Source: a virus
Taxonomy: Duplodnaviria; Caudoviricetes
Virus record (IMG/VR): IMGVR_UViG_3300014205_000015
Location: 1-64,000 of that record
Reading direction: 5' to 3' (one strand)
DNA: 64,000 nucleotides
Position 1 is the first letter of the stretch. Every line of letters begins with the position of its first letter. The notes under the pieces are model-generated. The model was not told the DNA's origin. It did no database searches and saw nothing but the letters and a program-made list of their open reading frames with translations. Positions 2,834 through 35,220 of the stretch are shown one piece after another. The position numbers and the translations under genes were made by a program.

Positions 2834-5800
2834 ATGAGCATAGCACAATACAGATCACTCCCAACGTCCGTTGCTACAGCAGCCGGTCTGGCGAGAACTA
2901 GCTCGCGCACTATCTCTGGTGGAGTCGTCTCTACCACTGGTAGATTGACTGCGGGTGACGGTGGGCGTGCCGACTATCTATATCGCCGCACTGGCAGGAG
3001 CGGCGTCACGATTGATGATGGAGCCTATATAGCTGGCCCTGGAAGTGACGACTACTGGGAACTGGCTAATCGCGATGACATTAACATTGCGGTGTTTAAT
3101 GTTGACCGGACTGGCGCGACCGACTGCCGCAGTAGTATCGTCTCGGCATTGGCTGTACTTAATGGCGAGGGAGTGCTGCGATTCCCGCGAGGTACTTATC
3201 TTGTTTCTACCAGCCTAGCAATAGATCACAGGATTGTTCTTGAGATTGGGGCTATTCTCAAAGCAGCCAACGGGGCGGTGATTACCCTGCCCAATAGTTA
3301 CGAAGCGGACGATCATCAGGTGTGCTTTGACATCTCCCTTGGCGGAAGTGTCTTGGCTAGTCGTGAGTATGTTTCGACTGTTCATTTTGGGGCGGATAAA
3401 ACAGGAGTGGCGGATTGCTCGACAATTCTCAACGCGGTTATTGATACATATAAAACCAGCCCCACCAAAATCAAGGTTCCGTCTAACGCAACGCACTTAT
3501 GTAACTCAACGCTTACGGTGTCTGGTAGTGGTAATCATCTCAACATATTTGGAGAAGGCGAGACTTCTTGGATTTACAGCCCCTCAGCTATAGTGGCGAT
3601 CAATAGTTCGCTCTCTAGTGCGTACACCACAATTCGTAATATGAAGATCAGTGGCAATGGACAGGCAGCAGATGGCATATACTGCCGCATTAGCGCCACA
3701 GACATAACGATTGAAAACTGCGATGTGTCTGGGTTTGGGCTTACTGGATCGACAGCGCAGATTAATTGCGAAGACTGCACGCGAGTTCGAATCGTTGGTA
3801 ATCGAGTTAGCGGTGGTGGTGATACAGAAGATTCGCTTGACTCAGATATTCGCATCCTAAACTGCCAAGACTTTGAGGTAGCCAGGAACCGATGCACATC
3901 AGGCAATAGTGAGGGCATTGCCATCAGTCAGACTACGACGGGTGGGCTCCGTGGGGTTGTAATCGGAAACATCATTACCGGGCATCGTCGTCATGGAATT
4001 TTATTTGCCTACGACAGCGACCAATGTGAGTTAGCGATTGTTGGAAACCGGATACACGATTGCCAGTGGACAGGCTTGTACTCCATTGAGGCTGACGTGC
4101 TGGAGCCGTCTAGCATTCAGGGTAAATGCGCTATTGTTGGTAACGTAGTGACGCATAGCGGCGGTGGCTACGCAGCCGATGCGGCTGGCAATGGTGGCAT
4201 CCACATTGCAGGTAGGCTCGGGACCACTGTTACAGGGAACACTGTCACAGACTGCGGCTATGACCCAGACGGCACTCTGCAAACGGTTTACGGTCGCGGC
4301 ATCTACCTCAATGGTTGCTCCAACGTAGCGTGCAGCGGTAATTCAGTAAAGAACTGTTCGAGAAGCGGAATTGAGATATTCACAAGCTGGGATGCAGACG
4401 GGATCGTGATCGGAAACAACTCAATCACAGACTGTGTGTTTGCGTGTATCACGATCAGTAACTCGGGGACAACTTACACGAAGTCTGACCTCATTGTGTC
4501 GGACAATGTTTTGCGACAAGTAACCCAGGACGGCTACGGCATCCTGATAATGGAGGATGCGGGCGGGATTGACGTGGCGATACATGGAAACACGCTCCAC
4601 GGAAGACGCGCCGGGACGAACATTCCGGCTATTTATCTGCTGCGCGAGCGAGCTAAGTCTATCTCGATCTTTAACAACACTATGGTCGAGTGGGACTATG
4701 GGCTACAAGCTGACTACGGCACAGGCGATGAGGAAGACTGGATTATCGGTATCGGCTGTCGGATGGATAGGAATACATTCATTAGTGTCGATACGCCATT
4801 TAAGACGCGGCCAGTGTACGCTGCTGTGGGTCGGTCGAATGTGTTTGTTAATTGCAACCCAGGGTTCTCGTCCTTTAAGGTTCCAGCAACTTATGAAAAC
4901 GGAGTGATGCGAGGTTATTACGTTGGCGGTTTACCAACTCGGCGATGCCGCAATGGCGATAGACTGGAGCCGCTAGAGGCCGACTCAACGCAGAACCTTG
5001 CCTGGATCAATAACGCCACGCCGCCTTCATCAAAGACGATTAGCAATTCGACGTTAGCAGACGACACTATCACTGTAACGAGCCACGGATTCACGGCTGG
5101 GCAGCGGGTGAAGGTGGCTGGTTCAAGCCTGCCAGCTCCGCTGGTTAGTGGGCAGGAGTATTACGTTAGGTCTGCACCAACTGCCAATACGCTTGTCCTT
5201 GAGGCTTTCAACTCAGCAACCAACGCTGTGGATATCACCGCAGATGGCGGCACTGGGACTATTCAGGCTCTTGACTACGATCCAAGCTGGGTGCAATACC
5301 CTGACCCTGAAGGTGCTCCACAGTCAACCTATGAAGACTTAGCCTTGTCTGCTGTCAATCGCTGGATGGGTGATGCCGATGGCGATACCAACGGCGATCC
5401 AGACGACAGTAATGGCAGTGCGGATTTAACATGGACTGGTGCGCCTGTGTATGGCGGTACGCTTCCGGTTGGCTCGGAAGGTAAGACGTTCACACTCAAC
5501 GGAACTGATAATGTCCTGACGAGCGGGGCTGGTGTTGGTGACTACACTGACAACTTTTCAGTGGGAGGCTGGATCAACCTGACGAACATTGATTCTGGCG
5601 ATAGGTTCATATCGAAGCGAGACGGGTCTAATGTGGCTTGGGATTTTGGGGTGGGTGGCGGCGGACTGATCTATATGTTTGATTCTGAGAATACTGGCCA
5701 TACTGGAAATCTCGATATTGTCACAGGGCAGTGGCAGCACATAGCTATTGTCATTAAGAATGGAATTGGCAAGTTCTACGTGGATGCAGTGCAGTCAGGT

Positions 5801-6397
5801 AACGATTTCTATCCCGTCATCAACAGTTATGCCAGTATCCCTATAACCATCGGCTCAACTCTCTCTGGGTTCTACATTACTGGTGAGATGTTTGACTGGC
5901 GAATCTACGGCAGTGCTTTATCCGATTCTGATCTTGCAAAGATAGTGGCTGGTCCGCAGACAAACTCTCGGATTGGCGATCTGAGCTACTTCAGCTTGAC
6001 GGGCACGGCTGTTGTGATTGCTACTGTGTCAGACGGCTCGACCAACATGGTCAAGGCTGACGTTGCAAGCACTACCGTTGATTCGCTGAGGTTTGACAAT
6101 GGCGGGGCTAATGACGGCAGGCTGCGGTATACGGGGAGTAATAGAAATGCTTTCGGTGTGACAGCAAGCGTTTCTGTCACTTGCGCCGCAGATAAGTTAA
6201 TTGTGGTTGGTCTGGCTCGCAATGGAACTGTTATTGCGGCGACTAAACTGCTAGCTACGGTCGGCACGGCTACAGTGGCTCTGACGCTGGATGCTCAAGT
6301 TGACCTTTACACGAACGATTACGTGGAACTGTTCCTTGGGAACACCACCGACGATGCTGACATTACAGTACATTCTCTCGCGTTGAGGGCAAGCTAA
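2834..6397 (+). CDS. tailspike / polysaccharide depolymerase (right-handed beta-helix plus LamG-like domain)
   Basis: GDGGRADY motif, two TG.TDC cap motifs, many 'I.GN...' beta-helix repeats, C-terminal FSVGGWIN...WQHIAIV...FYVD...WRIY LamG pattern. Confidence 0.85.
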   Translation: MSIAQYRSLPTSVATAAGLARTSSRTISGGVVSTTGRLTAGDGGRADYLYRRTGRSGVTIDDGAYIAGPGSDDYWELANRDDINIAVFNVDRTGATDCRSSIVSALAVLNGEGVLRFPRGTYLVSTSLAIDHRIVLEIGAILKAANGAVITLPNSYEADDHQVCFDISLGGSVLASREYVSTVHFGADKTGVADCSTILNAVIDTYKTSPTKIKVPSNATHLCNSTLTVSGSGNHLNIFGEGETSWIYSPSAIVAINSSLSSAYTTIRNMKISGNGQAADGIYCRISATDITIENCDVSGFGLTGSTAQINCEDCTRVRIVGNRVSGGGDTEDSLDSDIRILNCQDFEVARNRCTSGNSEGIAISQTTTGGLRGVVIGNIITGHRRHGILFAYDSDQCELAIVGNRIHDCQWTGLYSIEADVLEPSSIQGKCAIVGNVVTHSGGGYAADAAGNGGIHIAGRLGTTVTGNTVTDCGYDPDGTLQTVYGRGIYLNGCSNVACSGNSVKNCSRSGIEIFTSWDADGIVIGNNSITDCVFACITISNSGTTYTKSDLIVSDNVLRQVTQDGYGILIMEDAGGIDVAIHGNTLHGRRAGTNIPAIYLLRERAKSISIFNNTMVEWDYGLQADYGTGDEEDWIIGIGCRMDRNTFISVDTPFKTRPVYAAVGRSNVFVNCNPGFSSFKVPATYENGVMRGYYVGGLPTRRCRNGDRLEPLEADSTQNLAWINNATPPSSKTISNSTLADDTITVTSHGFTAGQRVKVAGSSLPAPLVSGQEYYVRSAPTANTLVLEAFNSATNAVDITADGGTGTIQALDYDPSWVQYPDPEGAPQSTYEDLALSAVNRWMGDADGDTNGDPDDSNGSADLTWTGAPVYGGTLPVGSEGKTFTLNGTDNVLTSGAGVGDYTDNFSVGGWINLTNIDSGDRFISKRDGSNVAWDFGVGGGGLIYMFDSENTGHTGNLDIVTGQWQHIAIVIKNGIGKFYVDAVQSGNDFYPVINSYASIPITIGSTLSGFYITGEMFDWRIYGSALSDSDLAKIVAGPQTNSRIGDLSYFSLTGTAVVIATVSDGSTNMVKADVASTTVDSLRFDNGGANDGRLRYTGSNRNAFGVTASVSVTCAADKLIVVGLARNGTVIAATKLLATVGTATVALTLDAQVDLYTNDYVELFLGNTTDDADITVHSLALRAS

Positions 6398-7018
6398 GTG
6401 GCTAACTATACGATTCCAGTAAGTTCACCTTTTATAGTGACTGGTGACGACGCATACGGCAAGCCGCTTGATACTGATTTCAGCGGTGTCAACTGGACGA
6501 CAGATGTAGTGAGTGCCGTCGAGGTTGCCAGTACAGGTATTTACGAAATCACACTAGACGACACTAAGGGTTATGCTCTGTACCGCAACGAGCACATCCA
6601 GTCATTCACTGCCGATGCTGGAACAGATGTCATTACAGCCGCTTCACATGGACTTCTGGACGGCGAGACACTTCGCTTTCAGGGCACTGACCTGCCAGCT
6701 CCGCTAGCACAGGGGACGCTGTACTATATCCGGGATGCAGCTTCTGGGACATTTAAGGTATCGCTCACGGCTGGCGGAACTGCTGTCGATATCACCGACG
6801 CAGGGACAGGCACAATGACATTCACCGCGCCAGGCGATAGGAGCATTGATGATACACTGATAGGAACAGTACCGATTGTTAATGCGGCAGCATTGACAGG
6901 CGAAGGGAGTGAAGCGCTAGTGTCTGCAATAGTGGCTAGTGAGGTCGGCACTAACTTAGCCGCTATCAAGGCTAAGACGGATTTGGTTGGAACAATCAGA
7001 TCACTGATTCGCTGGTAA
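6398..7018 (+). CDS. tail structural protein
   Basis: Shares an 'IT...HG....LPAPL..G..YY.R....VDIT' module with the tailspike; GTG abuts previous TAA. Confidence 0.75.
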   Translation: MANYTIPVSSPFIVTGDDAYGKPLDTDFSGVNWTTDVVSAVEVASTGIYEITLDDTKGYALYRNEHIQSFTADAGTDVITAASHGLLDGETLRFQGTDLPAPLAQGTLYYIRDAASGTFKVSLTAGGTAVDITDAGTGTMTFTAPGDRSIDDTLIGTVPIVNAAALTGEGSEALVSAIVASEVGTNLAAIKAKTDLVGTIRSLIRW

Positions 7019-7033
7019 CGGGGAGTAATAGCC

Positions 7034-8182
7034 ATCGCGCCTCGACGCTGCTGCTGTGACGTATCATGCTTGATTGGCAGCGATGACTTTAATCGCGCCG
7101 ACAACGATTCCCTGGGCTCGCTTTGGGTAGAGAAGTCTGGCGACTTTGATATCGACACCAACACGCTGATTACCGCCATGACCGGCGTGTGTCTGACTTC
7201 GCTGAGGCAAGCCAATCCAAGAAGCTCGGGCTATCACTACCAAGTGCTTGTTGATTTGGTGCAGACTGCTACGGAATGGGCGCTGATTTGCAAATACACC
7301 GACGCTAACAACTTCGATTGGATTCACTTCTACATCAGCGGCACTGACGTTCTGCCCCGCTTCTATCAGCGCGCTGGCGGCGTAGACACGATGATAATGG
7401 ATATCACGACGCATCCAGCTGGGGTCGGCTTCCCCATTACGGGCACCGATAACATCCAGATTGAAATGTGCTACTCTGAGGTAGGCTGGACGGTTGAGTC
7501 TGGCGACGAATCAAGCCGCTGGACAACATGCGACGTATCACCAGCCTCGTCCCTGCCAGCCGATACTGCCGTGGGCTTCGTTGGCTTCCTCTACGGCGAT
7601 TTCGACAACTTCTTCTACTACTACCATCGCCTGTCAAACCTGCCATGCCCGGTATGCGATTGTTCATGTGAAAACCCAGATGACGATTCTGACTATGCCT
7701 GCATGCCAGAGACGCTGACGATGACTCTGCGACCAACGGCGCCGTTTACCGATCCCTATGGTGGATGTGCGGCGGGCAGTGACGTGGTTATCAATCTGTA
7801 CCAGAGCTATCCGTCAGGCGTAGCGGCTCTCACAACACCGACGTACGACCCCTCGCCGCGCAAGGTTGAGTGGTATTCCGACATTCTGTACTTTCCTGAC
7901 CGTGGCATTGAGTTATGGTTTTTGCTAGTTTGTGATGCTGGTGAGTTTCGGCTGCACCAGCTACTCTATCCCGGAGACTTCCCAACGATTGGCTCGGGCT
8001 CTGGCGTGGTCGAGTGGCTAGGTACTCCGTATGGCACGTATCAGTTACCGGACGTGACTGAATGTAACCCAATCAACATGCACTTTGATGTGCTTCGAGT
8101 GACCAATCATGATGATGGCGTTAGCATTCCCTATTGCGATACGTTGCCAGACCTTGACTACGAGATTTTTATCACGTCATGA
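7034..8182 (+). CDS. Cys-rich virion protein (lectin-like fold); probable non-AUG start at ATC 7034
   Basis: ORF track starts at TTG 7070, but the frame is open upstream giving (M)APRRCCCDVSC with a GGGAG RBS 8 nt before ATC. Confidence 0.7.
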   Translation: MAPRRCCCDVSCLIGSDDFNRADNDSLGSLWVEKSGDFDIDTNTLITAMTGVCLTSLRQANPRSSGYHYQVLVDLVQTATEWALICKYTDANNFDWIHFYISGTDVLPRFYQRAGGVDTMIMDITTHPAGVGFPITGTDNIQIEMCYSEVGWTVESGDESSRWTTCDVSPASSLPADTAVGFVGFLYGDFDNFFYYYHRLSNLPCPVCDCSCENPDDDSDYACMPETLTMTLRPTAPFTDPYGGCAAGSDVVINLYQSYPSGVAALTTPTYDPSPRKVEWYSDILYFPDRGIELWFLLVCDAGEFRLHQLLYPGDFPTIGSGSGVVEWLGTPYGTYQLPDVTECNPINMHFDVLRVTNHDDGVSIPYCDTLPDLDYEIFITS

Positions 8183-15573: not shown

Positions 15574-15864
15574 TCACTTGTCACAATAGCCAGCCCTGAA
15601 GTCACTCCGGACTGGAGGTAGGTTGTACGTCTTCACTGCTGCCAGGAACCTGGAACGGGTCGCCCGGCGCACAGTGACGCACCAGTAGCCCGTTCCCATG
15701 CGCTCAGGATGGTTCATCACAGTGGCCGCAGAGATACCCAGGATGTTACAAAACTCGATTAGCGCATCAGATTCCGTTTCCTCCTGAATAGCCTTGGTTA
15801 CGTTGGTCACAAGCCCTCCTGGCAGCTCTCGGTGCGCTGATACTAGGTAGCGGGTGAGTTTCAT
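15574..15864 (-). CDS. hypothetical protein
   Basis: GGAGA RBS. Confidence 0.6.
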   Translation of the reverse strand: MKLTRYLVSAHRELPGGLVTNVTKAIQEETESDALIEFCNILGISAATVMNHPERMGTGYWCVTVRRATRSRFLAAVKTYNLPPVRSDFRAGYCDK

Positions 15865-16010
15865 GGTGCGATTCTCCAGGAGAGGTTATGGAAAGCCTAC
15901 TATCGGTTGATTCTAGCACTGGGGGTTAAGCCGCGCGCACAGTGTCCCGGGGAGGTGCCCCGCCACAGCCGACCAACGAGGTAGCGGGCAGGGCACCTAT
16001 CCCGGCTCGC

Positions 16011-16343
16011 TTAGTCCTGCGTGTCTTCTGCTTGCATCATCGCCAGTTCTTTCAGCTTCGGCAGTCCGCTTAAGAGATCGTCGACAATGGTAGCGCGACA
16101 GGAGTTTACTAGGTCTTTGGTTGGTTTTGGTGCCTTGTACCCGTCAGTAATGCCGACAGATGTAGCGTATGCCAGCAAGACGGCTTTAATGTCTTCGCCA
16201 AGCCACTCGCGCCCACCTGCTATCTTGGCTCGCCATGTATCCTTTAGCGCATGTGTTATCACGGAATGAACGTGGGTGATGAAATCTTCCGCTTTGCGCT
16301 GAGCTAATTTGTCGATTGTTTCCGACAAGCTTCTTTCGTTCAT
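16011..16343 (-). CDS. hypothetical protein
   Basis: TACCCGGAGG leader motif. Confidence 0.7.
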   Translation of the reverse strand: MNERSLSETIDKLAQRKAEDFITHVHSVITHALKDTWRAKIAGGREWLGEDIKAVLLAYATSVGITDGYKAPKPTKDLVNSCRATIVDDLLSGLPKLKELAMMQAEDTQD

Positions 16344-16454
16344 GGGATTACCTCCGGGTAGGGTGTATGCGTTGATTGGCTCGCCAGCCTTCGCCTAAAG
16401 TGAAGCGAGGAACGCGGCGTGGCCGAATGCCTCGCCGCGTGTCCTCGGCTCACG

Positions 16455-17414
16455 TTAGATATGGCAATCGAGAAGCGTAATCCACTGCGTAGGCTGAAGC
16501 GAAGCAACCATCTCGTTAAACTTCTCGTCCCACTGGTCGTCCTCGTTGCTGACGCAAGCCCACCAGCCCATTTCGCCTTGCTCGTACCATTTCCCGTCTT
16601 TGACGACAGCAAAGGCTGACAGCATCGGAGCGGAGTTAATCCAGTCGTCGAGGGTCTGTTCTCCGATTTCTGGTATCTCAAAGTTGTGGGAGTGAGCATC
16701 TGCCACGTTAGCATAGCCCGCATCGCGAAGCCACTGGAAGTATTCGCTACCACGCGGGCGGTCGCTGGCTGGAATCTCCATCCACTTGGCGTGTACCTCT
16801 TTGTGTAGCTGGCAGGCAGCACCAAAGTCCTCGCGTGACATTCCACACTTAGCGATACATTCATCAACCCAATTGGCTCGCCCTCGCTGGGCTTCCACCT
16901 TCATCTTGTCCCAGTCAATATCAGCAACACACGCTGAGTCAAAGCCCTCTGGTATCGTTTTCTCGTTCTTCCACTCCCAGCTTGGTTCGGTCGCCACGGC
17001 GGACGCTACACCGGATTTGACTTGAAGTCTCGCTCGATAGCGACCACCGACGCGCCAGTAATCCCATTTCTTGTTGGGATTAGTGCGGGTTATCACTTCC
17101 AGGACATTGCCATCGGCACCGACGCGCACATAGCCGTATTTGTGCTCTCCCTCTTTGTCGGGATCGGCTGGAGAAACTACAGGCTCCAGTCCATACCAGC
17201 CATTAATCCATTCCAAGAAGCCTTCAGCCGGTTCGGTTGCATTCTCCGTGTACTGGGCATACTCCGCTTTAGCTTCCTCAGTGCGGTCGATTGACTGCAC
17301 GTACTGGTCGTCGGTGCCAGTGCATTCAAACTCATGGTATGGCTGCATGAGTTTGGTTAGGATTTCATCGGTGGGTTCGCTGTCAGTTACCACCATCACA
17401 GAAAAATGTGACAT
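16455..17414 (-). CDS. conserved-looking phage protein (Trp-rich; NP..KWDYW..GGR motif)
   Basis: Long ORF; start MSHFSV after TACCCGGAGG. Confidence 0.8.
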   Translation of the reverse strand: MSHFSVMVVTDSEPTDEILTKLMQPYHEFECTGTDDQYVQSIDRTEEAKAEYAQYTENATEPAEGFLEWINGWYGLEPVVSPADPDKEGEHKYGYVRVGADGNVLEVITRTNPNKKWDYWRVGGRYRARLQVKSGVASAVATEPSWEWKNEKTIPEGFDSACVADIDWDKMKVEAQRGRANWVDECIAKCGMSREDFGAACQLHKEVHAKWMEIPASDRPRGSEYFQWLRDAGYANVADAHSHNFEIPEIGEQTLDDWINSAPMLSAFAVVKDGKWYEQGEMGWWACVSNEDDQWDEKFNEMVASLQPTQWITLLDCHI

Positions 17415-17452
17415 TATTCTTTCCTCCGGGTAGGGTTTCAACGGGTTTAGCT

Positions 17453-17509
17453 GCCTCGTCAGGTCATCCCCACTACGGGATAACTACGCCCACAAGTGAG
17501 CGTTTCGGC
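17453..17509 (-). ncRNA. type II hammerhead ribozyme
   Basis: Minus strand: GCC-GAAA-CGCUCAC-UU-GUGGGCG-UA-GUUAUCCC-GUAGUG-GGGAUGAC-CUGACGA-GGC. Full core (CUGANGA, GAAA, GUA triplet) with stems III, I and II. Confidence 0.85.
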
Positions 17510-17510
17510 T

Positions 17511-18761: not shown

Positions 18762-18825
18762 CCTTGGCTTGTGGCTGGTCAGCGAAGTGCTGAGCCGCAT
18801 TAGCGCCCGAAGGCGTCACTCTGCG
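18762..18825 (-). ncRNA. twister ribozyme (permuted; P1 capped by cUUCGg)
   Basis: CGCA-GAGUG-ACGCC-UUCG-GGCGC-U^AA-UGCG-GC-UCAGC(ACUUC)GCUGA-CCAG-CCACAAGC-CAAGG. P2 UGCG/CGCA, T2 GC/GC, T1 GUG/CAC. Confidence 0.8.
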
Positions 18826-19187
18826 TTGTTCACTTTGGCTTTGGCGATGGCGGCGCGGGTGGCTTTGATTTCGTTGGCGTAAACCGTCAGTAGTAGAGAG
18901 TCGTTATCAAACATCGAGTCGATCGACTCCAGCGCGGCCAGCAGTTCCGCCAGACGATCTTCGAGCATCATGCAGCGCTCAGCGTAGGCTGCCTCAGTGC
19001 GGGTGGAGAAACCGCCTAATTCATCTTCAAGGCCAGCGACAAACCATCGCTTTCCAGGGCAGTCGATGTGGTTATTGTGGACACAACCCACAGCGCCGTT
19101 ATCGTAGCGGTTATTTGTGTACCATCCGCCATGTCTCCATCGCTCTGGAAAGCTTGGCTGCCAGCGGCGCGTTTGTGTCGTGTTCAT
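18816..19187 (-). CDS. hypothetical protein
   Basis: TACCCAGAGG leader; last codons form part of the twister. Confidence 0.7.
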   Translation of the reverse strand: MNTTQTRRWQPSFPERWRHGGWYTNNRYDNGAVGCVHNNHIDCPGKRWFVAGLEDELGGFSTRTEAAYAERCMMLEDRLAELLAALESIDSMFDNDSLLLTVYANEIKATRAAIAKAKVNNAE

Positions 19188-19221
19188 TATGTTTCCTCTG
19201 GGTAAAAAGTGGTAAGCCTGC

Positions 19222-19274
19222 GACGTTACAGGGGCTCGGCTACCGCTGGGGGTAGCTCCGCCGCCGAAACGTCA
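19222..19274 (-). ncRNA. unclassified structured RNA motif, copy B
   Basis: GACGUUUCG...GCUACC/GGUAGC hairpin...CCCCUGUAACGUC directly after a stop codon. Confidence 0.5.
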
Positions 19275-19823
19275 CTAGATAGGGTAGATAGAGCTGAAAC
19301 TGACCGGCTGACCGTCACGCTCAAGCTGCTCACATTTGGCGATAATTTGCTTGGCGTGTGCTTTGTTTTCCTCTGTGTCATACAGCGCCGAGTGGCTATA
19401 GTGCTCGAATTGAATACCCCGCCAGTACACGTAGCCGTCGTATTCGATTCGTAGTCGCTCGTCGATGCCGTAGAGTGGTTCGCCGCGGTCCTCTACTAGC
19501 GGTGGATTGTCGCGTTCCGTCTGGGCAATTCGGAAGTGTACGCCAGCTACGCCATGCGTACTCGATTCTGCGCCATTGGTGATATCGCCGCAGCAGAGCT
19601 CCACGCAATCGTCACAGAGTCCGTATCCAGGCTCCTGGTTCCACCAGTCGCGCCCCTGGAGCGATTCGCCACAGCAAGTGCAGGACAGCCACTTAATTGG
19701 CTTCTTGCGCTCGTTGGCGTAGTCGTCTACTCTCGCTGCGCTGGCTTGCTTGTCTAGCGATTCCAGCCATGCGTTAGCTTGTTCTGTCGTCGTTATGGCG
19801 ATTGTCTCGATTCCGTGTCTCAT
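19275..19823 (-). CDS. hypothetical protein with zinc-binding motif
   Basis: CTCCG...GLCDDC; TACCCGGAG leader. Confidence 0.75.
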   Translation of the reverse strand: MRHGIETIAITTTEQANAWLESLDKQASAARVDDYANERKKPIKWLSCTCCGESLQGRDWWNQEPGYGLCDDCVELCCGDITNGAESSTHGVAGVHFRIAQTERDNPPLVEDRGEPLYGIDERLRIEYDGYVYWRGIQFEHYSHSALYDTEENKAHAKQIIAKCEQLERDGQPVSFSSIYPI

Positions 19824-19861
19824 GGTTTTGCTCTCCGGGTAGAGGGGTTTGGGGTAATTCC

Positions 19862-19920
19862 TGACGTTGCAGGGGTCACAGGGCTAGCAGGTGGGCTAGC
19901 CCAGGTCCCGCGAAACGTCA
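19862..19920 (-). ncRNA. unclassified structured RNA motif, copy A
   Basis: UGACGUUUCG...GGGCUAGC/GCUAGCCC hairpin...CCCCUGCAACGUCA starting at the stop codon. Confidence 0.5.
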
Positions 19921-20284: not shown

Positions 20285-20313
20285 ATTGTACGCTTCGGGG
20301 CCCATAGTGTCTA
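20285..20313 (-). promoter_or_regulatory. sigma70-like leftward promoter
   Basis: TAGACA-N17-TACAAT. Confidence 0.7.
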
Positions 20314-30455: not shown

Positions 30456-31106
30456 GGTCGCGGAGAGGTATGGCAACATAAGTCACGGTCCGGCGAGTCA
30501 TGTCCGGGCGGTCATGGAATGGTTGGGCACGGCACCATATGGTATGTCGCGGCTTGGCGTGGCGGTCCCGGTTGGGTCCGGTAAAGCTGGTCGGGGCGGG
30601 GTGTTGCGAGCCCGGGTTTGGCGGTCGGGGTACGGTTCGGCACGGCGGGTCGGAGCATGGAATGTTGCGGCGGTCGCGTCGAGGTGCGGTGCGTTTGGGC
30701 GAGTCCAGGCGCGTCGGGGTATGGTTGGGCGGTCGAGGTGAGGAAAGGCTGCGCTAGTTCAGGCGAGTCATGGCACTGGCGGTCGCGGTATGTCCTGACT
30801 AGTCATGTGAGGAAAGGCGAGGCGGGGCGGTCGAGTCGGGTCTTGGAGAGGTTCGGTCCGTTGCGGTCTGTCCGGGCGGTTTGTCAAAGCTAGGCTGCGC
30901 GTGGCGGTCATGGTGACGAGAGGCTGGGTATGGTACGTCGCGGCGGGTCTGGGGCCGGTGAGGCGGTCAAGATTCGTCAGGTCGCGGACAGGCGGGGCGG
31001 GGTACGCTTAGGCGGGCCTAGTCCTGGCGGTCGCGTCGGGGTCTGGAGTGGCACGGTCGGGCAAGGTGAGTCGAGCTCTGGCGTGGTGAGTATCGGCAAG
31101 CCGGTC
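30456..31106 (+). repeat. 5-nt periodic guide-like array 2 (12 units)
   Basis: Units start at 30456, 30510, 30564, 30623, 30672, 30731, 30781, 30829, 30878, 30906, 30965, 31029; junction GGC-GGTC. Confidence 0.92.
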
Positions 31107-31127: not shown

Positions 31128-33059
31128 ATGCAGCACAATTGCTGCATGACCTCTCCTTTTTTTGATTTAGTCCCAAAAGACCCAATTGAGAATCTCCGTT
31201 GGCGCATTCGTTGCCGCGAGCGTGCATTGGCTGATAAGCGGTTTCGAGACTCGCTATATCAAGCGTGCATGAGTGATCTTTGTTTCTGGATGGCATTTGC
31301 CTGTTGGGGATACGACCCGCGAGCCCGCTTCAAGATCGTTCCATTTGTACCCTATCCACATCAACAAGCTGTGTTCGTGGCGATGGATGAAGCCATAAGC
31401 ACTGCCGAACGTGAAGAACGATCGGTCGACGTGATCCTGGACAAAAGTCGGGCTCAAGGTGGATCTTTTGGATATCTTTGGGTCGACCTTCGGCGCTGGC
31501 TGCGCGATCCAATGTTTTCAGCAGGTTTTGTTACGAAAAATGAAGATTCGATTGATTCAAAGAGCGACTCATCGACGGTGCTGTGGAAAGTGGCATGGGC
31601 GATTGAGCGATTGCCTTTCTGGATGAAGCCCAATTACGAACGGCATCTTGGTCAGCACACTTTCATTAACAACGACAACGGTTCGTTATTGCGAGGATAC
31701 TCTGCAGGGCAAGACGTGGCAGCCGGTGGCCGTACGACTGTGTTCACAGTGGACGAAGCTGGCGCGAGAGACTTCGTTTCAGGTGGCAAAGACGAAGCGG
31801 TTCAGGAGTCTATTCAAGACGTGTCCAACTGCATTCGCATGGTCTCTGCTCGTTACGTGGATGCAGGTGTCTTTCACGAAGCCTGCGAAAACCCAGACAC
31901 GAAAAAGAACGGTATTCATCTTATACTGGACTGGAAAGACCACCCCGCTCAAAGCAAGCACTCTTACATTGTGCGAGAGGGAATCGCGGTTGCCATAAAG
32001 CCGGAAGATCAAGCGGCGGTCACGGAATACCACCGAAAACACCCTGACCTGCGATCCCGACTGGAAAGAAAAGGATTTAAATTTGAAGTGGTTGTTCGCA
32101 GTCCGTGGTACGACTCTCGATGTTTGCGCCCGACAGCCACCCCGCGACTGATAGCTTCGCAGCTCGACCGCAACCCTCGCGGAGCAGTAGGTAAAGTTTT
32201 CGCATCAGACCTCTTGGACCGCATGAAGCGAGAGCACTGCAAGGGTCCAGTTTGGGTGGGCAATCCAGTATTTGACTCAGAAACCTGCAAACTAACGGGA
32301 TTGATTCCCAGGGATGACGGCTTGCTGAAACTGTGGTTCAAGCCGGGCATCGACAACTCACCGCCGCTGGGACCGTTCACCGCGGGATGCGACATCGCTT
32401 CGGGTGGAGTTGGGGCGTATTCCTCAAACTCGGTCATAACGGCGCTGGACGACAGAACCGGGGAGCAAGTCTTGGAGTACACGGTCAAGGGACTCGAGCC
32501 ACGACCGTTTGCACGCCGGGTGGTTGGGCTGTGCATGTGGCTTAGAAACGCACTGCTTGGCTGGGAGGATTCCGGGGTGTCTGGTGGTTTTGCTAAGGAA
32601 ATCATGGAAGTTCTTTATTATGGTTCCGTGTTCTATCGGGACGTAAACCAGCTCGGTTCCCAGAAGAAAAGCCGCAAGCCTGGCTGGCCGTGCCGTGACG
32701 CAGACAAAGCGGACGATTTTGAGCAAATGGCGCTGGCGATGGAGACTGGGAAGTTCGTTCCGCGTTCCGAGGAAATGATTGTCGAGTGTTCTGAATATGA
32801 GTGGGACGGCACCAAAATCATTCACGCACCGTCGAAAAACAAGGGGGCGGCTGACAAGAATCACGCCGACCGCGCTATAGCAATGGCAGGCTGTTGGAAG
32901 GTCTTTAGCACCGATAATGCAACCCGTAAGATTGACACAGACGTGGAAAACGGTCAGAATCCAGAGTACGGCTCGTTTTTATGGCGAGAGCAGCAAGAGC
33001 GCCGGAACGTGAAAACGGGTAGCCCGAAGTTCGGGATTAGGGACATTATTGGACGCTAA
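31128..33059 (+). CDS. terL: terminase large subunit
   Basis: PYPHQ, Walker A-like KSRAQGGS, Walker B VDEAG, RNase H-like GCDIASG, HADRAIA. Confidence 0.92.
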   Translation: MQHNCCMTSPFFDLVPKDPIENLRWRIRCRERALADKRFRDSLYQACMSDLCFWMAFACWGYDPRARFKIVPFVPYPHQQAVFVAMDEAISTAEREERSVDVILDKSRAQGGSFGYLWVDLRRWLRDPMFSAGFVTKNEDSIDSKSDSSTVLWKVAWAIERLPFWMKPNYERHLGQHTFINNDNGSLLRGYSAGQDVAAGGRTTVFTVDEAGARDFVSGGKDEAVQESIQDVSNCIRMVSARYVDAGVFHEACENPDTKKNGIHLILDWKDHPAQSKHSYIVREGIAVAIKPEDQAAVTEYHRKHPDLRSRLERKGFKFEVVVRSPWYDSRCLRPTATPRLIASQLDRNPRGAVGKVFASDLLDRMKREHCKGPVWVGNPVFDSETCKLTGLIPRDDGLLKLWFKPGIDNSPPLGPFTAGCDIASGGVGAYSSNSVITALDDRTGEQVLEYTVKGLEPRPFARRVVGLCMWLRNALLGWEDSGVSGGFAKEIMEVLYYGSVFYRDVNQLGSQKKSRKPGWPCRDADKADDFEQMALAMETGKFVPRSEEMIVECSEYEWDGTKIIHAPSKNKGAADKNHADRAIAMAGCWKVFSTDNATRKIDTDVENGQNPEYGSFLWREQQERRNVKTGSPKFGIRDIIGR

Positions 33060-33291: not shown

Positions 33292-33365
33292 GGCGTCCGA
33301 CAACAATAAGGGCATAAGACGGAGTAGCTACCGTCCAGAATGCCTCTAACATTCGCAGCCTTAGA

Positions 33366-33410
33366 GGGGTCGCGACGCTGAAAAAGCGTTTCGGCCCCCT
33401 TTTCTTTTTT
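33366..33410 (+). terminator. intrinsic terminator-like hairpin before the portal gene
   Basis: GGGGTCG..ACGC/GCGT..CGGCCCC followed by TTTTTCTTTTTT. Confidence 0.6.
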
Positions 33411-33420
33411 AGGCTGCTAG

Positions 33421-35220
33421 ATGATTGACCTCTCCAATCCCGAACGACGAGCAAGGCTGCAGAAGGCTATCAGGTCGTCACGAGACGCACTTGAGCCATT
33501 TCGTCGGGTACGGAAAGAACTAATCAAAGACTATGTTGGCTCGTGGTATCCAGGTGGAAGAGACAGCGAGAACGAAAGAGTCCTCGTTAATCTCATCAAT
33601 CAGACTGCCCGTATCTACACGATTGCCCTGGCAGCGAACAACCCGCAAGTCTTAGTCTCCACCCCACGGACTGAAAACATCGCCTTCGCTCGCAGGTTCG
33701 AAGTGAACCTGAACAAGCTGATTAGCGACATGACCCTGGACAAGACGTTCCGGCAGATTGTCACAGACGCCTTCTTCTGTCTGGGTTGTGGCGTGGTGAT
33801 GATGCGAGACACCAGTACCCGCTTCCACGGCTTACTAGAGTCTGAGGAGGACGTGTGGTTGGATCCAGGTGAACCGTGGCTCAATCGGGTTTCGCTGGAC
33901 GACCTCATCTTAGACATGCCAGCCAAAGAGCTTTCGAAGATGCGCTATTGCGGGCATCGCTACCGCGCCGACTACGAAAAGGTGATGGACGAGCCCGGCT
34001 ATTCGAAGAAGGCTAAGGACAAGCTCAAGCCAACCGGGAGAGAACACCACGACAGCACAGGCGCAGCTCGAGACATTGCTTCGGAGTACGGCAGCGCCCA
34101 AGACGACGACCTGAAAGACATGATTTGGCTCATGGATATTTGGGTGGCTGAGAACAATTCAGTCGTGACGATGGCATGTGACCAAGTTGACCTGGAACCT
34201 CTGATTGAGCGCGAATGGACTGGCTCTCAGGCGGGACCGTACAAGTTCCTCTCCCTGGGAGATACTCCAGACAACGTAATCCCAACGTCACCTGCAATCA
34301 ATCTGAAGGGAATGCACGACCTACAGAACAGGCTGCATCGCAGGATGGAGGATGATTCCGACGCGCACCGATTGGTGAACGTGTATCCGCCTGGCAAGGA
34401 GGATGATGCGAAGCGAATTCAGACGGCAGAGCGCAATTCGTGGCAAAGGATGACTAATCCTGCGGATATTAAGCAGGTTGAAGTTGGCGGTATTGACCAG
34501 CGCGACATGGCGATGGCTACGTTCATTCAAACGGAATACGACCGTTTCGCTGGTAACCTTCAAGCGATGGGCGGACTTGGAGCGCAAGCTGGGACAGTGG
34601 GGCAAGAGGAGTTGATTCACGGTCAGCTATCCAAGAACGTGGCTGACATGCGGATGGGTGTGGTGAACTTCGCGGCTGATTGCATCTTGGACCTGGGGAG
34701 GTTGATGTGGGAGGACCAGACGCTTGAACTGCACACTTCAATGCCAGTGGGCAACAGCGGGATTCAAGTCACCTCTGACTGGTCACCCGACTACCGCATG
34801 GGTGAGTTCGATGACTACGATTTTCGGGTCGAACCGTACTCGATGGTCTTCAAAACTCCCCAGCAGCACCTTCAGGAGTATTTCCAGGTGCTACGTGAGA
34901 TTGCCCCGCTCTGGCCTATGTTCCAGGCGTCGGGAGCTAGCCTCAACGTCCAGGTTTTAGTGGAAGAGATGGCACGTCTGTTGAATAAGCCGGAAATTAC
35001 GCAGTTGATTACGTTTGCGACTCCCGCTGAGATGCTCGGTGGAGACCAGAATACAGTCAGACAGAGCCCGAACACGACACGAACTAACATCCGCAAAAAT
35101 ATTTCGACTGGCGGCACCGAGCAATCGCGCAGCAATTCCTTGATTCGCGACCTCATGGCAGGGCAGTCCTCAAGTACCAACGGACAGCAACAAGCAGCTA
35201 TGGAAAGGGCACCCGCATGA
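33421..35220 (+). CDS. portal protein
   Basis: 599 aa directly after terL; helical; 'G...A.TVGQEELI' and 'DFRVEPYS' portal-like features. Confidence 0.85.
   Translation: MIDLSNPERRARLQKAIRSSRDALEPFRRVRKELIKDYVGSWYPGGRDSENERVLVNLINQTARIYTIALAANNPQVLVSTPRTENIAFARRFEVNLNKLISDMTLDKTFRQIVTDAFFCLGCGVVMMRDTSTRFHGLLESEEDVWLDPGEPWLNRVSLDDLILDMPAKELSKMRYCGHRYRADYEKVMDEPGYSKKAKDKLKPTGREHHDSTGAARDIASEYGSAQDDDLKDMIWLMDIWVAENNSVVTMACDQVDLEPLIEREWTGSQAGPYKFLSLGDTPDNVIPTSPAINLKGMHDLQNRLHRRMEDDSDAHRLVNVYPPGKEDDAKRIQTAERNSWQRMTNPADIKQVEVGGIDQRDMAMATFIQTEYDRFAGNLQAMGGLGAQAGTVGQEELIHGQLSKNVADMRMGVVNFAADCILDLGRLMWEDQTLELHTSMPVGNSGIQVTSDWSPDYRMGEFDDYDFRVEPYSMVFKTPQQHLQEYFQVLREIAPLWPMFQASGASLNVQVLVEEMARLLNKPEITQLITFATPAEMLGGDQNTVRQSPNTTRTNIRKNISTGGTEQSRSNSLIRDLMAGQSSSTNGQQQAAMERAPA

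Follow-up and report, generated by a model that had tools for sequence, protein, structure and literature searches.

Ribozyme-punctuated operons of phages and prophages carry RNA elements that flank single genes and are thought to cut long transcripts into gene-length mRNAs. Since 2011, single phage genes flanked by multiple ribozymes have been known, an arrangement interpreted as a sign of transcript processing (Perreault et al. 2011, PMC3088659). The window, a 64-kb stretch of DNA, is part of G000, a complete 77,730-bp phage record with direct terminal repeats. Two gene junctions of an early operon on its minus strand hold copies, A and B, of one RNA element, and similar slots in this operon or in related phages hold hammerhead II, twister-P5, and pistol-like elements. 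Unlike the ribozymes of punctuated operons, this element is a rod-like hairpin with none of their catalytic cores and no Rfam match. The question raised by the locus is what such an RNA does in a slot of this kind.

The operon is preceded by a sigma-70-like promoter (20285..20313, minus strand, 10 of 12 consensus matches) that lies upstream of its first gene. Copy A is found at 19860..19920 on the minus strand by its fold and by a score of 51 bits (E about 1e-12) with R1, a covariance model of the basal helix. Judged from sequence and fold, the hairpin of copy A runs from 19919 to 19863, and a 3' tail continues to 19860. It is made up of the basal helix, two 1x1 mismatches, GGG/CCC, an internal loop, and an 8-bp tip with a 6-nt loop, in that order. 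The first bases overlap the UGA stop codon (19920-19918) of the upstream 79-aa gene. On the 3' side lie the conserved RBS region and the ATG (19823-19821) of a 182-aa gene (19821..19845, minus strand).

Copy B is located at 19217..19274 on the minus strand, again by its fold and by R1 (62.6 bits). Its hairpin, read in the same way, spans 19273..19222 and its tail 19221..19217. It begins 1 nt past the UAG stop codon (19277-19275) of the upstream 182-aa gene and is followed by the conserved RBS region and the ATG (19187-19185) of a 123-aa gene (19185..19205, minus strand). The tip of copy B has 6 bp and is unlike the tip of copy A. Relative to shuffled sequences, the fold of copy A (-35.6 kcal/mol) has a z of -5.8 and that of copy B (-31.5 kcal/mol) a z of -3.2. 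A 10-mer from the 5' side and a 13-mer from the 3' side each occur twice in the 64-kb window, at A and B only. A gapped A/B pattern has two matches in the whole 77,730-bp record, and its reversed control has none. The next intergenic slot of the operon contains a twister-P5-like element (18763..18825, minus strand) that scores 25.2 bits, below the gathering score of 37.6. A later slot contains a hammerhead type II ribozyme (17445..17510, minus strand; 50.6 bits, gathering score 37).

A preliminary description of this DNA had reported both copies and had placed each at a stop codon and ahead of an RBS. Re-reading of the minus strand confirms the two copies as described, and the stop codons, RBS regions, and start codons given above bear out their placement. 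The same description took UCG and CCCCUG to be conserved and unpaired. This part does not survive folding, in which the two segments pair with each other through a C-G pair, a G.U pair, and GGG/CCC. In the folded model, the A/B motif is one continuous irregular hairpin and not a helix around a conserved open core. The preliminary description also lacked a conserved tail directly 3' of the helix, which is able to form an alternative hairpin.

On sequence evidence, A and B belong to a genuine and uncatalogued family of RNA hairpins found in early operons of uncultured phages. The family is composed of 40 distinct copies from approximately 19 phage records and metagenome contigs, two of which are complete phage genomes. 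The alignment of the family, A4, holds 41 matches (40 distinct) from 19 loci. The sense orientation is observed in 40 of 40 copies. Pattern scans identified a third copy in the 65-kb phage G001 and one copy each in G007 and G008; outside these three, exact-core scans of viral contigs returned only chance matches without the inner hairpin. A metagenome scan added 13 true loci, with many chance matches alongside. Contigs encoding homologues of the protein that precedes the G001 copy contributed 11 further copies. The R1 search covered the fetched loci and found two to five copies per contig, diverged copies included. In 185,579 reference prokaryote genomes (one per species), only chance or unrelated palindromes were matched, and neither a prophage copy nor a hint at the host was seen.

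No family of Rfam 15 matches A or B, whether the window is searched at gathering scores or stretches of 9 kb and 761 nt are searched at E<=10 under lax filters. The copies on 11 metagenome loci are likewise without an Rfam match. The absence of a match even at E<=10 upholds the earlier view that the motif fits no known ribozyme consensus. Covariance models of the known classes (hammerhead, twister, twister-sister, pistol, hatchet, HDV-like, and hairpin) give no match for either copy. Re-readings by hand as HDV-like, pistol, or hammerhead RNAs fail, because P3 has no room and neither a three-way junction nor a core is present. A comparison with RAGATH-type motifs had also been proposed, and A and B remain unmatched by an Rfam family of any name. 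RAGATH motifs (Weinberg et al. 2015) are reportedly RNAs that occur in the vicinity of twister and hammerhead ribozymes. The name RAGATH is operational and does not denote a family, and only some of the motifs proved to be ribozymes. The element resembles them in that it was found as a conserved structure in ribozyme-rich neighborhoods.

G000 and G001 are diverged phages, with structural genes only 65-76% identical and early regions that are otherwise unalignable. Despite this divergence, the basal sequence of the element is identical in the two. Among the early proteins of G000, only the 182-aa protein has homologues in the other loci, in L008 and L138, and the L138 contig ends before the slot downstream of its homologue can be read. 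Pfam and PHROG searches with ten early proteins returned orphans and no candidate RNA-binding partner. Pfam searches with six further proteins, the largest of 2691 aa, did not indicate the phage type.

Members of the family share one layout. From base to tip, this consists of a 6-7-bp outer helix, a 1x1 mismatch, a C-G and a G.U pair, a second 1x1 mismatch, three G-C pairs, an internal loop, and the tip. The tip has 6-10 bp, is free in sequence, and has no sequence common to the copies. Stems are G+C-rich. In the 29 copies that fold as a clean single hairpin, the arms are 21-27 nt long (median 23) and contain 15-24 pairs. The internal loop has 2-5 nt per side and lies 11-13 positions above the base in all copies. 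Most copies possess a YGA/GAY internal loop, but the loop is not conserved between subgroups and is dissimilar among A, B, and the G001 copy. Every copy sits in the gap from a stop codon to the following RBS. In 39 of 40 copies, the helix begins at -2 to +7 nt relative to the stop codon (median 0); the next start codon follows the element at 8 to 55 nt.

The pairing of the basal helix is maintained while its letters change. In A4, which was fitted to the model structure so that pairing is somewhat favored, the 11 basal pairs are 93.8% paired. Two-sided changes are observed in seven of the 11 pairs (36 cells), which was matched by 0 of 500 shuffles. Slid registers of the same alignment pair far less, at only 35-59%, which argues that the signal is real. 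GGG/CCC compensates to GCG/CGC, GCC/GGC, GCA/UGC, or GAAU/AUUC, and the outer helix GACGUU/AACGUC becomes GAGAGU/ACUUUC. Both 1x1 mismatches are replaced by Watson-Crick pairs (G-C or U-A) in some copies, and the G.U pair by A-U or G-C, so that no invariant unpaired nucleotide is left. Every basal pair varies among the 40 distinct copies. The G.U pairs are valid on the sense strand alone.

The highest letter conservation is found in the 3' strand and in the 5-nt tail after the helix. The two can fold together into a hairpin of 5 bp, which has the 3' strand of the outer helix as its loop. In copy A, this alternative hairpin (19860..19873, minus strand) has a 4-bp stem, CCUG/CAGG, and a 6-nt loop, and is seen when the 5' strand is folded as unpaired. 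In copy B (19217..19232, minus strand), fold and family covariation give a 5-bp stem with one U.G pair and a 6-nt loop. The alternative hairpin and the basal helix are mutually exclusive. Three nucleotides pair in both, and two more lie in the basal mismatches. Zero linker nucleotides separate the two helices, so a pseudoknot is infeasible. The alternative stem is 97.4% paired in A4 and has compensatory changes in two pairs, with CCUGC/GCAGG becoming CAUGC/GCAUG in L116 and CUCGC/GCGAG in L212. Because the 3' hairpin excludes the basal helix and both covary, the element has two states. The conserved letters are explained by two alternative helices.

Two exclusive helices under selection, as expected of an attenuator or riboswitch, are indicated here by the covariation of both. 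With the 15 nt that follow the stop codon kept unpaired, to mimic a terminating ribosome, the alternative hairpin appears in almost all folds. Trp-type attenuator leaders, as commonly described, are similar in that two exclusive helices share one strand, and a ribosome at the nearby stop codon would choose between them. Unlike such leaders, the element has no terminator U-run, no visible masking of the Shine-Dalgarno sequence, and no fourth strand. Across 22 copies, the unpaired probability of the Shine-Dalgarno sequence shows no consistent shift between the states. A Shine-Dalgarno or terminator switch is rejected on this absence of a consistent accessibility change and on a negative terminator scan at A and B. 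An intrinsic terminator is rejected as well; the scan calls none at either copy on the minus strand, and the sequence after the helix is not U-rich. No promoter is called inside the element. Between copy B and the next gene there is a weak sigma-70-like match (window 19186-19215, minus strand, 9 of 12), which is at chance level by shuffles.

Overlapping alternative hairpins were also sought in other long intergenic hairpins. Eight of nine exceed the shuffle mean, with individual fractions of 0.01-0.37. A general rule that each long intergenic hairpin has an overlapping alternative is rejected, as the trend in these nine hairpins against shuffles is weak.

The slot that the element occupies is shared with ribozymes. 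The element occupies the slot downstream of homologues of the G001 197-aa protein in G001, L116, L091, L211, L212, L213, L214, and L218. In L217, the equivalent slot holds a twister-P5 ribozyme of 39.4 bits, above the cut-off of 37.6. The earlier proposal that the element sits in ribozyme slots is borne out by these eight phages and by the ninth with its above-cut-off twister-P5. Ribozymes with Rfam-recognized cores thus replace the element in this position, so the function of the slot is probably RNA cleavage. L211 additionally has a hammerhead II ribozyme.

Among the readings considered, the one favored, with a probability of roughly 0.45, is that the element is a non-catalytic processing and stability signal that would be cut by a host double-strand RNase and is laid out like the RNase III sites of phage T7. 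An idealized RNase III substrate has 22 bp, and at internal loops the enzyme can make single-strand cuts that leave stabilizing 3' hairpins (PMC3867540). The median arm of 23 nt in the 29 cleanly folding copies corresponds to about two helical turns (~22 bp). The element is also intercistronic and multicopy: G000 has two, and a contig can have as many as four or five. An RNase III gene is absent from five complete or near-complete related phage genomes, so the cutting enzyme must be assumed to be host-derived. A nuclease site is less expected in phages that already own three ribozyme classes. A stable hairpin could also act without any cut.

The early RNase III signals of T7 (R0.3, R0.5, R1, R1.1, and R1.3) are likewise present as several intercistronic copies per early operon. 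RNase III cleavage is proven for them. The T7 intercistronic regions folded here are taken to be sites R0.3 to R1.3, as the T7 RefSeq record carries no such annotation. Like the element, they are irregular hairpins with a lower stem, an internal loop, and an upper stem, of approximately two helical turns. In the folds, the lower part is conserved among the copies, and the tip is variable with compensating changes, as in the element. There is no sequence similarity between the two. The element is far more G+C-rich and has a longer lower stem. Unlike in the T7 signals, its helix starts at the stop codon, and its conserved tail with the covarying alternative 3' hairpin has no counterpart in the T7 folds.

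If the element is a host-nuclease site of this type, an RNase III-type endonuclease would cut the long hairpin at or near the internal loop. The upstream message would then end in the tip hairpin, and a few nucleotides at the start of the downstream message would precede the alternative hairpin. We infer that this hairpin might cap the new 5' end. Each terminating ribosome would melt the basal helix and allow the alternative hairpin to form. The element may double as a breakpoint for the exchange of gene cassettes among related phages.

The nearest alternative, an uncut two-state structure coupled to translation termination, is possible although unlikely. The ribosome would melt the basal helix, the 3' strand would refold, and the intergenic RNA would be structured in both states, as a shield against Rho loading, RNase E, or 3' exonucleases or as an insulator between cistrons. 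The fixed register of the helix with the stop codon, next to its loose spacing from the start codon, speaks for this, as do the covariation of both helices and the appearance of the alternative hairpin whenever the 5' strand is constrained. However, the accessibility of the Shine-Dalgarno sequence is not consistently changed, which leaves no visible regulatory output, and catalytically intact ribozymes fill the same slot in relatives, which points to cleavage. Arms kept near two helical turns are unneeded for a mere barrier. An operator for a phage or host RNA-binding protein, e.g., an antitermination or translational regulator, is harder still to accept and is rated doubtful. Its protein would bind one of three features, namely the small 3' hairpin, the basal helix, or the internal loop with its tandem G.A. 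Sequence conservation in the 3' strand and tail indeed goes well beyond the needs of pairing, the YGA/GAY loop recurs in most copies, many metagenomic copies precede another small hairpin whose 8-nt loop is conserved, and a CsrA homologue is encoded in the operons. Yet diverged copies leave no invariant position, as the outer helix, the G.U pair, and the small-hairpin loop all covary, and A, B, and the G001 copy have unlike internal loops. Nut-type sites also differ in number, as an operon here can have up to four or five copies, with one at each gene junction. A conserved partner protein was not identified, and the loops lack the GGA motif expected for CsrA. A lambda-type nut site is specifically rejected: the small hairpin lacks a conserved loop, its loop letters instead changing together with the 5' strand, and a copy lies at most gene junctions.

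Self-cleavage, as first proposed, is favored by association, as the element has the slots and operons of hammerhead, twister, and pistol-like ribozymes in common with them. Rfam lacks the family, and very small ribozymes built as stem, internal loop, and stem exist (PMC11620745). Those minimal ribozymes depend on 5-6-nt loops that are nearly immutable (PMC11620745), and the family has no such loop. Its subgroups do not even share an internal loop. Invariant, mostly unpaired nucleotides of the kind that make up an active site are not found among the 40 distinct copies, no junction is present, and the replacement of both mismatches and the G.U pair in some copies leaves no candidates. A new self-cleaving ribozyme class is therefore rated highly improbable. 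The original suggestion of a new self-cleaving or processing RNA class stands as to a new class, absent from Rfam, and is not supported as to self-cleavage; processing is the best reading of it, more probably through a host nuclease. A broader version would be a new, very simple self-cleaving RNA class or a termination-triggered two-state device that decides per cistron between cut and kept, either of which would be a fourth cutter interchanged with hammerhead, twister, and pistol. This is regarded as a long shot. A DNA-level recombination linker, a boundary sequence kept for cassette swapping with incidental RNA structure, is very improbable as the primary role. Two unrelated upstream and two unrelated downstream genes occur in all four combinations around one copy type, the E-type (L097/L105, L121/L147, L130, L163). 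An identical element with about 45 nt joins different genes in L101 and L138, and the shared basal sequence of G000 and G001 fits the same picture. These arrangements mark the element as a breakpoint of cassette exchange. Against a role in DNA alone, compensatory changes preserve two RNA helices, G.U pairs are valid on the sense strand only, and the copies have a fixed orientation and a fixed register with the stop codon. Recombination is more plausibly an effect of the conservation of the element than the function of the element, and cassette exchange probably helps to explain that conservation across diverged phages. Arbiol et al. in 2010 reportedly described PeSL, mobile promoter/stem-loop cassettes at gene boundaries of T4-type phages. 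PeSL are said to be conserved intergenic stem-loops at the breakpoints of shuffled cassettes, as the element is. Unlike PeSL, the element has no promoter detected inside it, and its constraint is demonstrably on RNA pairing.

Structured RNA is present at almost every gene junction of these early operons, and four kinds, namely three ribozyme classes and the hairpin, are swapped per slot. This swapping is a natural experiment on the purpose of intercistronic cleavage. A host-nuclease site would place a protein-dependent signal beside RNA-only cutters and, if it is of the RNase III type, would suggest that ribozymes and nuclease sites are interchangeable in phage mRNA processing. As to how a new 5' end may be protected, the covarying alternative hairpin offers an idea that is cheap to test. 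Self-cleavage, if true, would add a ribozyme class by the association logic behind pistol, hatchet, and twister-sister. The R1 model and the A4 alignment are ready as an addition to an RNA family database and as a marker for an uncultured phage group.

Several other RNA structures were observed in these phages and contigs. In L217, a pair of twister-P5 elements (3272-3344 and 3904-3966; 36.2 and 39.4 bits) brackets the homologue of the G001 197-aa gene. A pistol-like repeat is found in G001 at 30589-30640, 31745-31800, 33343-33396, and 34489-34544 (L024 10595-10638, 11753-11794, and 14497-14538). It is also present at G003:4278, 5873, and 6935, L211:8042, L212:2497, L214:5327, and L218:3345, and is absent from G000. 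The repeat matches only positions 22/24-68 of the Rfam pistol model, i.e., the 3' two-thirds, at 21.8-23.7 bits, below threshold. It has no P1 hairpin, and its 5' strand pairs straight to the pseudoknot segment. The helix equivalent to P2 (model positions 24-27 with 65-68) covaries as GGGG/CCCC, GGGU/ACCC, and GGGA/UCCC. From its sequence, the repeat is probably a pistol variant missed by the standard model. An intact hammerhead core (CUGAUGA, GAAA, and GUC) lies in intergenic sequence at G001:30228-30305 (L024 10228-10305), for which Rfam gives no report at the gathering score or at E up to 5.

A second small hairpin lies 5-20 nt on the 3' side of most metagenomic copies of the element; its stem varies, and its 8-nt loop, (A/C)GUGAGAC, is conserved. 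Examples are seen on the minus strand of L116 after 5126-5205, in L097 after 4544-4617, and in L214 after 6271-6346. This hairpin lies just 5' of the Shine-Dalgarno sequence, is absent at the G000 and G001 copies, and is a possible candidate for a protein operator. CsrA-family genes (Pfam PF02599) are found in the same early operons at L211:8117-8290 and L214:7987-8169.

Other slots of the operons contain plain long hairpins of 22-27 bp, e.g., window 16341-16457 and 15862-16013 on the minus strand and L214:7158-7273 and 7886-7989. By eye, on the printed sequences, these appear conserved between G000 and L214, and L214 shares the TACCCGGAG start motif. Hairpins of the same build as the element, with a lower stem, a UGA/GAY-type loop, and a variable tip, are present at L211:5490-5573 and 6349-6447, L212:5822-5922 and 7668-7759, and L213:5476-5581. 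R1 does not detect them, and several have their own overlapping 3' hairpin, for which the shuffle test is weak (fractions 0.08-0.37). In L008 (G002), a different pair of hairpins, at 2920-2965 and 3572-3615, flanks a homologue of the 182-aa gene (65% identity). The two hairpins share a conserved base of their own, CCAAGCCGC ... GCCCUUGG, whereas their tips are unrelated. The slot thus retains a hairpin with a conserved base although the sequence family is another.
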